The notes below the pieces were generated by a model. The model did not search any database and was not told the origin of the DNA. It saw nothing but the letters and a program-made list of their open reading frames with translations. A stretch of 58,006 nucleotides of DNA from Candidatus Moraniibacteriota bacterium (GTDB taxonomy: Bacteria > Patescibacteriota > Minisyncoccia > Moranbacterales > UBA1568): positions 1 to 58,006 of the forward strand of contig JAGOTT010000006.1 in assembly GCA_018061645.1 (NCBI GenBank), read 5' to 3'. Shown here in pieces: positions 48,022 through 48,755 of this stretch. The translations under genes were made by a program, and so were the position numbers. Position 1 is the first letter of the stretch. Every line of letters begins with the position of its first letter.

Positions 48022-48755
48022 AACTTAGAGGCTAAGCCACTAAGTTAGCGAAAGTATATGAGAAAAACAGTTTTCGCGAACGACGAATATTACCATATCT
48101 ACAATAGGGGAACCGATAAACGGACCATCTTTTCCGATGATGAGGATTTGAATCGTTTCCTTCAAAGTATGGTCGAGTTCAATGCGACTGATCCGATCGG
48201 GAGTCTTTATCAAAACTCTTTCCGTAAAAAAACTCAACTTAGTGGCTTAGCCTCTAAGCACGAGCAGGAAGAGAAAGAAAACCTTGTCGCCATTGTCGCT
48301 TATTGCCTAAATCCAAATCATTATCACTTCATATTGAAACAGATTTCGGAGAGGGGAATAGAAAGGTATATGCATCGCCTTGGGACGGGGTATACGAGGT
48401 ATTTTAATGAAAAAAATGAAAGAACTGGGTCATTATTCCAGGGGACTTTTAAGAGTATTCATATTGATTCTAACGAGTATCTTCTTCATGTGAGTGCATA
48501 TGTGAATCTCAATGATCGGGTTCATCAGCTTGATAAACTTAGTGGCTTAGCCTCTAAGTCGAGTTGGGAAGAGTATGTCGAAAATAAGCGGAGCGGTATG
48601 CTGTGTGAGAAAGACGTTATTCTTGGACAGTTTCGGAATTCATTGGAATATCGGGAGTTCGCGAAAAATTCTTTACAAGGAACCCTTGAAAGAAGGGGGT
48701 TGCTTACTGAGGAATATCTTATTGAAAATGATTGATTAGAGGTTAAGCCTCTAAG
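48022..48755 (+). mobile_element. IS200/RAYT-like unit: Y1 (HUH) transposase gene bracketed by its cognate palindrome
   Basis: Palindromes lie at 48022-48046 and 48736-48755 flanking the CDS, with two more copies inside it. A spot-counted line at 48301 is about 33% G+C, against about 60% in surrounding DNA. Confidence 0.75.
48058..48735 (+). CDS. IS200-like / REP-associated tyrosine transposase (Y1 HUH family)
   Basis: 225 aa. YHIYNRGTDKRTIF, HUH motif in AYCLNPNHYHFIL, catalytic-Tyr region GTGYTRYFNEKNERTGSLFQGTFKS, and YLLHVSAYVNLN. Confidence 0.8.
   Translation: MRKTVFANDEYYHIYNRGTDKRTIFSDDEDLNRFLQSMVEFNATDPIGSLYQNSFRKKTQLSGLASKHEQEEKENLVAIVAYCLNPNHYHFILKQISERGIERYMHRLGTGYTRYFNEKNERTGSLFQGTFKSIHIDSNEYLLHVSAYVNLNDRVHQLDKLSGLASKSSWEEYVENKRSGMLCEKDVILGQFRNSLEYREFAKNSLQGTLERRGLLTEEYLIEND

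Follow-up and report, generated by a model that had tools for sequence, protein, structure and literature searches.

A probable REPtron-like unit of Candidate Phyla Radiation bacteria: a resident RAYT-like gene with 21-nt hairpin repeats around and inside its own reading frame

REPtrons consist of a RAYT (TnpA-REP) gene with flanking repetitive extragenic palindromes, or REPs (Nunvar 2010; Ton-Hoang 2012; Messing 2012, PDB 4ER8; Corneloup 2021), and the spread and homogeneity of REPs are still poorly understood (Corneloup 2021). The RAYT-specific motifs are an N-terminal Thr and NP(L/V)(R/K)xG beside the Tyr (Nunvar 2010). In the literature, the known TnpA-REP enzymes are described as strand-specific and the loop bases of group 3 REPs as essential. 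Here we describe a Y1/HUH (RAYT-like) gene and the hairpins around and within it, located in a 58,006-nt stretch of Candidatus Moraniibacteriota DNA (assembly GCA_018061645.1, contig JAGOTT010000006.1, positions 1 to 58,006; the whole stretch is called the window below). The data suggest that the gene and its hairpins probably represent a REPtron-like unit of a previously uncharacterised clade found throughout the Candidate Phyla Radiation (CPR), consisting of a resident Y1/HUH gene and a cognate 21-nt hairpin repeat. Our best reading is that the hairpins of this clade colonise coding DNA, including the open reading frame (ORF) of the enzyme itself.

REPtrons, especially those of group 3, whose REPs are small perfect palindromes, were the closest known systems to the CPR family. 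Both have a Y1/HUH enzyme of the same fold, with its cognate palindrome on both sides of the gene; in both, enzyme and hairpin change in step from one lineage to the next, and the gene is a resident one that is inherited vertically and kept at low copy number. Genome-specific dispersed copies, with doublets and positions 3' of genes among them, are known from REPtrons, and solitary copies of this kind were seen in many metagenome-assembled genomes with the CPR family. The loop sequence was conserved within a CPR genome, as in group 3 REPs. Unlike REPtrons, the CPR family has two extra in-frame copies at family-conserved positions in the ORF of the enzyme, an insert of ~36 residues in the protein (EFNxxxPIGS plus the site-1 loop), an upstream copy built into the promoter, a low copy number and hosts that belong to CPR/Patescibacteria. 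In the literature searched, neither REPs inside a RAYT ORF nor such hairpins in CPR bacteria were described.

Two other groups of elements were compared. The IS200/IS605 insertion sequences (IS), such as those of the IS608 and ISDra2 TnpA enzymes, share the HUH/Y1 fold and the arrangement of a small gene between two hairpins, and their enzymes recognise the subterminal hairpins in folded single strands of DNA. They are mobile, occur in multiple copies and have guide tetranucleotides as well as left and right hairpins that are imperfect and asymmetric, whereas the CPR gene is syntenic, its paralogues are diverged, and its ends carry mostly perfect, identical palindromes in either orientation. 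The Rickettsia palindromic elements and the intragenic GTAG/CGTC REPs (Di Nocera 2013) are, like the CPR hairpins, palindromic units lying in frame within genuine genes; they hit genes of genome maintenance and translation and are read as an extra or altered peptide, as are the CPR hairpins. The CPR unit differs from the Rickettsia elements (~100-150 bp) in its length of 21-27 nt and in being open in all three frames, and it can replace a heptad of the same length (in TrpRS) as well as add residues (in BipA). It also differs from both the Rickettsia elements and the intragenic REPs in that the Y1 gene to which it is linked has been identified and contains the unit as well.

Four copies of the palindrome were found around and inside the 225-aa Y1 gene of the window, two of them in frame as LSGLASK, in agreement with a preliminary description of this DNA (Table 1). 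The hairpin unit is 21 nt long, with a 9-bp stem and a 3-nt loop. The coding copies at 48236-48258 and 48536-48558 are identical 23-mers in frame 0, and their reverse complement is exactly the upstream copy; the second coding copy had been placed at 48546-48569, a slip of 10 nt. The upstream hairpin ends 11-13 nt 5' of the ATG, and its stem reaches 13-14 bp (CTAA...TTAG) with a single A-A mismatch, while site 1 carries a T-T mismatch at stem position 6. The downstream copy directly abuts the TGA stop (48733-48735), with a gap of 0 nt rather than the 1 nt given earlier. A search of the window with up to 3 mismatches yielded 7 strand-matches at 4 sites, compared to 0.00 expected from shuffles. 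When folded as single-stranded DNA, the window hairpins had energies of -5.3 to -9.8 kcal/mol (z -2.4 to -5.0 versus shuffles), with -9.2/-9.8 kcal/mol for the upstream hairpin (z ~-5) and -5.3 kcal/mol for the downstream one (z -4.7). The T-T/A-A mismatch was common to three copies in the window, whereas most homologous hairpins were perfect; the hairpin of the closest orthologue with DNA (locus L083) reads CTTAGTGGC-TTA-GCCACTAAG. The mismatch is a quirk of the allele rather than a feature of the family, and the earlier comparison to a conserved mismatch in IS200 guide hairpins was not upheld.

The window protein scored 32 bits against Pfam Y1_Tnp (PF01797, cut-off 23) over residues 65-150. 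In an alignment of 118 sequences, H88-Y-H90 (HUH), Y148 and N152 were invariant. Y148 is the candidate catalytic Tyr, and it sits in helix 139-150 of an AlphaFold model with a predicted template modelling score (pTM) of 0.77 and a β-α-β-β-α-β-α core. The top fold match of the model in the PDB (Foldseek) was 4ER8_A, the E. coli RAYT with a REP hairpin (E 5e-5), followed by the IS608, ISDra2 and IS200 TnpA proteins; 2A6O, 2VJV and 2XM3 matched at E 4e-4 to 4e-3 with a probability of 1.0. The Pfam match, the invariant HUH and Tyr residues and 4ER8 as the best fold support the earlier assignment to RAYT/IS200-like Y1 enzymes. A sequence-level search of the PDB gave nothing beyond noise, hence no residue-level alignment to 4ER8 was obtained, and searches against known RNA, phage and defence families gave no matches. 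The protein had 3787 relatives, nearly all from CPR/Patescibacteria. In the model, site 1 falls within residues 54-71, where the predicted local distance difference test score (pLDDT) is <50; these residues belong to the family-specific insert, which lies between the first helix and the strand preceding HUH. Site 2 is in coil directly past the Tyr helices/H152-157, and residues 158-162 also have a pLDDT <50. Both encoded heptads are modelled as low-confidence coil off the core strands, as expected from the loop placement proposed earlier.

The positions of the hairpins were then surveyed across 84 homologous loci with DNA, nearly all of them from CPR/Patescibacteria. A hairpin was called when a 9-bp stem with a 3-nt loop had at least 8/9 stem pairs. 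An upstream hairpin within 90 nt of the ATG was present in 72/82 loci (88%) and a downstream hairpin directly past the stop in 58/83, against a background of 2.9% of 90-nt windows for either; coding sites 1 and 2 carried a hairpin in 54/84 and 58/84 loci, respectively, against 0.8% of matched in-frame windows in each case. The palindrome behaves as the cognate hairpin of the Y1 gene, as was first suggested from the window. In many genes, the stem is lengthened to 12-18 bp, for example in HQLGGxASKLV. A flip of the loop would in some cases produce a stop (TTA/TAA, TCA/TGA). Both orientations of such loops are seen in the flanking copies, and the sense one is retained in the coding copies.

Both coding segments were conserved family-wide as QLGGxASK in protein alignments, which rules out a recent insertion of the two coding copies. 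The idea of self-targeted insertion tolerated in surface loops was supported to the extent that the same hairpin occurs in frame in many other genes, but the segments are not lineage-specific insertions. Homologues carry the segments as well, the condition that had formally been set for refuting the idea; it is not refuted, because they bear their own locus-specific palindromes at the same sites. In about one-third of loci, one or both coding hairpins were gone or decayed while the ORF was kept, usually together with the flanking copies.

To count pairs at site 1, sequences were picked by protein-alignment column and not by pairing. Pairing was found in 80% of cells compared to 67% in shuffles (0/500), double-sided changes numbered 141 compared to 51 in shuffles (0/500), and the covariation score was 0.42 compared to 0.07-0.15 with slid partner columns. 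The paired copies within one protein also co-varied (GGEASK/GGEASK, GDSVSK/GDSVSK, GSPTSK/GSPTSK), and the amino acid swaps followed codon complementarity (L CTT/K AAG, G GGC/A GCC, D GAC/V GTC, H CAT/M ATG; also N/V and C/T). The covariation acts at the nucleic-acid level, not at the protein level. Conservation of QLGGxASK at both sites could alternatively mean that LSGLASK is a duplicated protein motif under protein-level selection with an incidental palindrome in its DNA. We regard the chance of this as negligible, since the swaps track reverse-complement codon pairing and not chemistry (H/M, D/V, C/T), the 21-mer also occurs in the non-coding DNA on either side of the gene, the loop residue flips between the sites (K/L, R/S, P/R), and both peptides are modelled as low-confidence coil. 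A repeat motif at the protein level was ruled out by the covariation, the non-coding copies and the loop flips.

Stems were frequently identical within a locus. Upstream and site-1 stems were the same in 31/49 loci compared to 1.4 expected, with similar results for other pairs of positions, and upstream and downstream stems were the same in 36/53 loci compared to 1.9 expected. When the stems matched, the loops were identical or exact reverse complements of each other, with only 1-4 other cases per comparison; the upstream-downstream pairs with the same stem included 20 with a direct loop, 14 with a flipped loop and 2 with another loop. Between loci, the stems differed by compensatory changes. 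One and the same imperfect 21-mer was found at two to four positions in 11 loci, including the window, in coding and non-coding DNA and in both orientations, and such a spread of a mismatch across positions is not explained by selection for pairing alone. Mosaic loci with different alleles were also observed (L009, L018, L028 and L043), and a whole allele can differ between close relatives. Because the stems match within a locus, the loops are the same or flipped and imperfect alleles recur, we conclude that copying involves whole hairpin units and can occur in either orientation. Such copying or replacement appears to take place at fixed positions and to be strongest within the gene of the enzyme and next to it.

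The upstream copies had a promoter-like context in most relatives. A TAnnnT box followed 51/71 upstream hairpins, 32 of these with TG (as TG-n-TAnnnT), and the box started 3 nt past the hairpin in 34 cases, so that 17 nt separate it from TTGGAR in the 5' arm, at the -35 position; the ATG was 6-9 nt beyond the box in most relatives. Judged from sequence, the upstream hairpin would form the -35 element and the spacer of an extended -10, leaderless promoter in most relatives. Downstream hairpins were not followed by the TAnnnT feature. Attenuation of the mRNA, as proposed in the preliminary description, cannot account for the upstream copy, which in most relatives lies inside the promoter and upstream of the leaderless start.

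The promoter context raises the alternative that the hairpins are primarily cis-regulatory, with the upstream copy as an operator or switch and the coding and 3' copies as roadblocks, attenuators or mRNA-stability elements, all selected for lowering transposase expression. Besides the position of the upstream hairpin in the promoter, this explanation is consistent with a 3' copy that abuts the stop and resembles a REP-type stabiliser, with perfect stems kept in coding DNA, and with the hairpin regulation of IS200 and RAYT expression discussed by Di Nocera (2013). We nevertheless consider it unlikely. Internal copies were lost or decayed in about one-third of loci with the ORF intact, identical units were found in unrelated housekeeping genes where control of the transposase is meaningless, and both orientation and allele differed between positions. 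A leaderless start places the upstream copy outside the mRNA, so control at the RNA level is not a common denominator, and the window has no -10 box. A regulatory role of the copies is plausible but secondary.

The Y1 gene was also examined for signs of recent mobility. In L083, a 78%-identical Y1 orthologue precedes the same glycosyltransferase-methyltransferase fusion gene as in the window, which is itself 82% identical at the amino acid level. The G+C content of the window was 36-44% across ~47900-48900 compared to 55-62% in the flanks, in accordance with the AT-rich patch first noted there, and the Y1 gene was 10-20 G+C points under the host DNA in three lineages (window 48058-48735, L081 4001-4696, L083 24-710), with its position conserved in two of these three. 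The AT-rich gene seems to resist amelioration; both the synteny of L083 and the presence of this G+C contrast in all three lineages weaken the idea of a recent horizontal arrival, to which the low G+C had pointed. Some metagenome-assembled genomes (MAGs) had two family members, and the window had one. Paralogues within a genome were 55-75% identical at the protein level and carried different hairpin alleles; a set of 80 loci contained no near-identical copies, with a maximum of 86% between species. Interspecies synteny and diverged within-genome paralogues indicate that the Y1 gene is resident and vertically inherited, not an active IS.

It was therefore considered very unlikely that the whole ~735-bp unit is an autonomous IS200-like IS, with the outer hairpins as its ends, the AT-rich patch as a recent insertion and the internal copies as accidents. 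The hairpins that flank the gene, the sharp drop in G+C, the Y1 transposase fold and the two family copies in some MAGs would all fit such an element. The same position and neighbour in a related species, with both genes similarly diverged, do not fit it, nor do the persistence of AT-richness in three lineages and the diverged paralogues with their different alleles. Both ends consist of one perfect palindrome, oriented at random relative to each other, and not of asymmetric, imperfect left and right hairpins. An active IS200-like element was rejected on the divergence of the paralogues.

Copies away from the gene were located in two scans of GTDB genomes for common hairpin alleles, with the loop left free; the matches listed came mostly from CPR MAGs, and the counts that follow refer to the matches listed. 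In the first scan, 79/96 sites were away from any Y1 gene. Within a MAG, copies from separate 8-kb blocks shared the loop, up to flipping, in 80/89 (90%) and 106/127 (83%) of pairs, and loop sharing between MAGs was 17% and 33%. The conserved context of the hairpin was A-CTTRG...CYAAG-T, often extended to CCA...TGG. Many solitary copies top longer stems (CCA-CTTGG...CCAAG-TGG) that are followed by T-runs, resembling terminators, and some form doublets. The allele type of the window, including its exact mismatch form, was found as solitary and in-frame copies in other metagenomes, and gene-associated alleles agreed with intragenic and solitary ones within MAGs, for example in CAZJJW, JBBTTA and MFTQ.

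The terminator-like copies, and the several alleles that can coexist in one MAG, would also be expected if the hairpins were a signal of the host (for instance stems of terminators, a sequence of the DNA-uptake type or a binding site for another protein) and the Y1 protein were not the agent of their spread. Uptake sequences of other bacteria likewise occur as inverted pairs and inside genes. This explanation appears highly improbable to us: 88% of Y1 genes had a hairpin within 90 nt upstream compared to ~3% of control windows, gene-associated and intragenic or solitary alleles matched within MAGs, the copy number among the matches listed was far under that of uptake sequences, and the sequence differed from genome to genome. 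The idea of a DNA-uptake sequence was set aside on the low copy number, the differences between genomes and the tight link to Y1 genes.

In-frame hairpins were present in the housekeeping genes of BipA, RNase R, RecJ, GatB, LigA, ArgRS, TrpRS, PurD, MiaA, Dus and PrmC (loci in Table 1), and Pfam confirmed the host genes for BipA, RNase R, LigA, TrpRS and GatB. These copies read LGGxASK or (H/N)LEAxPPS and were at times doublets. At the TrpRS site, close relatives had different alleles or the plain ancestral heptad with the net length unchanged, whereas in BipA a hairpin doublet adds ~11 residues to a loop. A general model of length-neutral overwriting was tempered accordingly, with TrpRS fitting it and the BipA doublet representing a net insertion. 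A Y1_Tnp gene directly upstream of TrpRS in L340 (9253-9933) was set aside as a member of a distant subfamily (26% identical to the window protein) without hairpins of this class. Locus L339, otherwise syntenic with the TrpRS region of L340, has no such Y1_Tnp gene. Within the window, a hairpin of the same class lies in frame in the gene for an FG-GAP repeat protein, and its allele differs from that of the Y1 gene 5.7 kb away (Table 1).

Several observations weigh against a REPtron-like unit. The CPR hairpins lack the GTAG or CGTC head of REPs. The RAYT motifs, the N-terminal Thr and NP(L/V)(R/K)xG, are not kept in the protein, in which the equivalent of the latter is Y148-VNL-N152-DRVHQ with only the Asn conserved, and the match to the NCBIfam equivalog REP_Tyr_transpos was 30.6 bits, below the cut-off of 80. 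The orientation of the flanking hairpins is not fixed and is effectively random, unlike the inverted flanking REPs of REPtrons and in contrast to the strand specificity of the known TnpA-REP enzymes. Contact between the enzyme and the hairpin is argued from E. coli TnpA-REP and IS608 TnpA. Copy numbers were low, at least 2-12 hairpins per MAG among the matches listed, and the allele of the window gene had no copy in the other 57 kb with up to 3 mismatches; within the 58 kb it is not dispersed. Some MAGs contain several alleles, and the match of allele to paralogue was checked anecdotally. The internal copies are dispensable, given their decay without loss of the ORF. The upstream copy in the window has no clear -10 box, and no promoter of the window gene was identified. 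The A/C-rich tract directly 5' of the first hairpin, which contains three overlapping direct repeats (Table 1), could hold the promoter of the window gene, as the usual -10 box of the family is missing in the window.

For the proposed REPtron-like unit, E. coli TnpA-REP and IS608 TnpA suggest a possible mechanism, in which the enzyme would bind the folded single-stranded hairpin and cleave at its conserved foot (A-CTTRG...CYAAG-T), and strand transfer would then replace or seed hairpin units. The action would be preferentially in cis, on the DNA nearest to the site where the enzyme is synthesised. We propose that such a cis preference would keep the four gene-associated copies homogeneous. It would also lead to colonisation of the ORF that encodes the enzyme, at two sites that code for loops and would tolerate the heptad L-G/S-x-x-x-S/T-K. 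The copies inside the ORF are most probably passengers that are tolerated and kept up by this copying, and in a secondary role they may possibly serve as extra binding sites for autoregulation.

If this interpretation is correct, RAYT-like systems extend to CPR/Patescibacteria, a transposase gene can harbour the substrate of its product within its reading frame over very long periods, and very small palindromes alter the genes for housekeeping proteins in streamlined CPR genomes. Because the four positions of the unit are fixed and can be aligned across thousands of genes, turnover, flipping and allele replacement could be measured against gene divergence, which makes the CPR family a natural experiment on how REPs spread and stay homogeneous. 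The compact enzyme and its 21-nt perfect hairpin could also interest users of HUH-tags and single-stranded-DNA tools.

A bolder version is conceivable, although we consider it less likely than not: a domesticated Y1 enzyme may use a 21-nt hairpin as a cassette that it writes, either way round, into sites prone to hairpins, among them the promoter and ORF of its own gene as well as essential genes, repeatedly replacing the unit at fixed positions and sometimes without a change in length. If true, the cassette would be the smallest enzyme-linked mobile unit known, the process would be a site-specific sequence conversion distinct from classical insertion, and the transposase gene would be the protected master locus of its repeats.

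Table 1. Coordinates of the Y1/HUH gene, the hairpins and other features; positions refer to the window unless a locus is named
Feature	Position	Strand	Details
Y1/HUH (RAYT-like) gene	48058..48735	+	225 aa; NHYHF and GYTRYFN; 40% G+C
Upstream hairpin	48022-48046, core 48024-48044 (feature span 48020..48048)	.	CTTAGAGGC-TAA-GCCACTAAG
In-frame hairpin, site 1	48238..48258	+	CTT AGT GGC TTA GCC TCT AAG = LSGLASK, residues 61-67
In-frame hairpin, site 2	48538..48558	+	21-mer identical to site 1, residues 161-167
Downstream degenerate hairpin	48735..48755	.	(A)TTAGAGG-TTAAG-CCTCTAAG, 7-bp stem
Same-class hairpin, other allele	42275..42295	+	CTTGGAGGT-TCG-ACCTCCAAA, phase 0, LGGSTSK, in gene for 2075-aa FG-GAP repeat protein
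In-frame hairpins in housekeeping genes of CPR MAGs			L113, L114, L126, L141, L148, L154, L156, L160, L102, L116, L127
A/C-rich tract	47946-48002		three overlapping direct repeats (CAAAACACA...)
Reverse-strand ORF	48040-48237	-	65 aa
Reverse-strand ORF	48525-48836	-	103 aa
Unrelated perfect palindrome	48770-48787		TTCCCGC-CTTC-GCGGGAA

The two reverse-strand ORFs listed in Table 1 span roughly from hairpin to hairpin and are probably chance products of composition. Outside CPR, the pattern CTTGGAGGC-nnn-GCCTCCAAG recurred in two fixed contexts, namely ...gtcgccCTTGG...CCAAGggcgac... within 240-350-aa ORFs of Gemmatimonadota MAGs (L092, L110, L112, L125, L146, L159) and ...aagacCTTGG...CCAAGccaccgctcaag in Bacillota MAGs (L119, L121, L145, L155, L158). 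These patterns look like separate conserved elements. The perfect palindrome listed last in Table 1 is unrelated to the hairpins, lies between the Y1 and glycosyltransferase genes and is unique in the window. Its reverse strand reads ...VIPAKAGIQ..., which we take to be the frequent spurious-ORF peptide of a widespread palindromic element.

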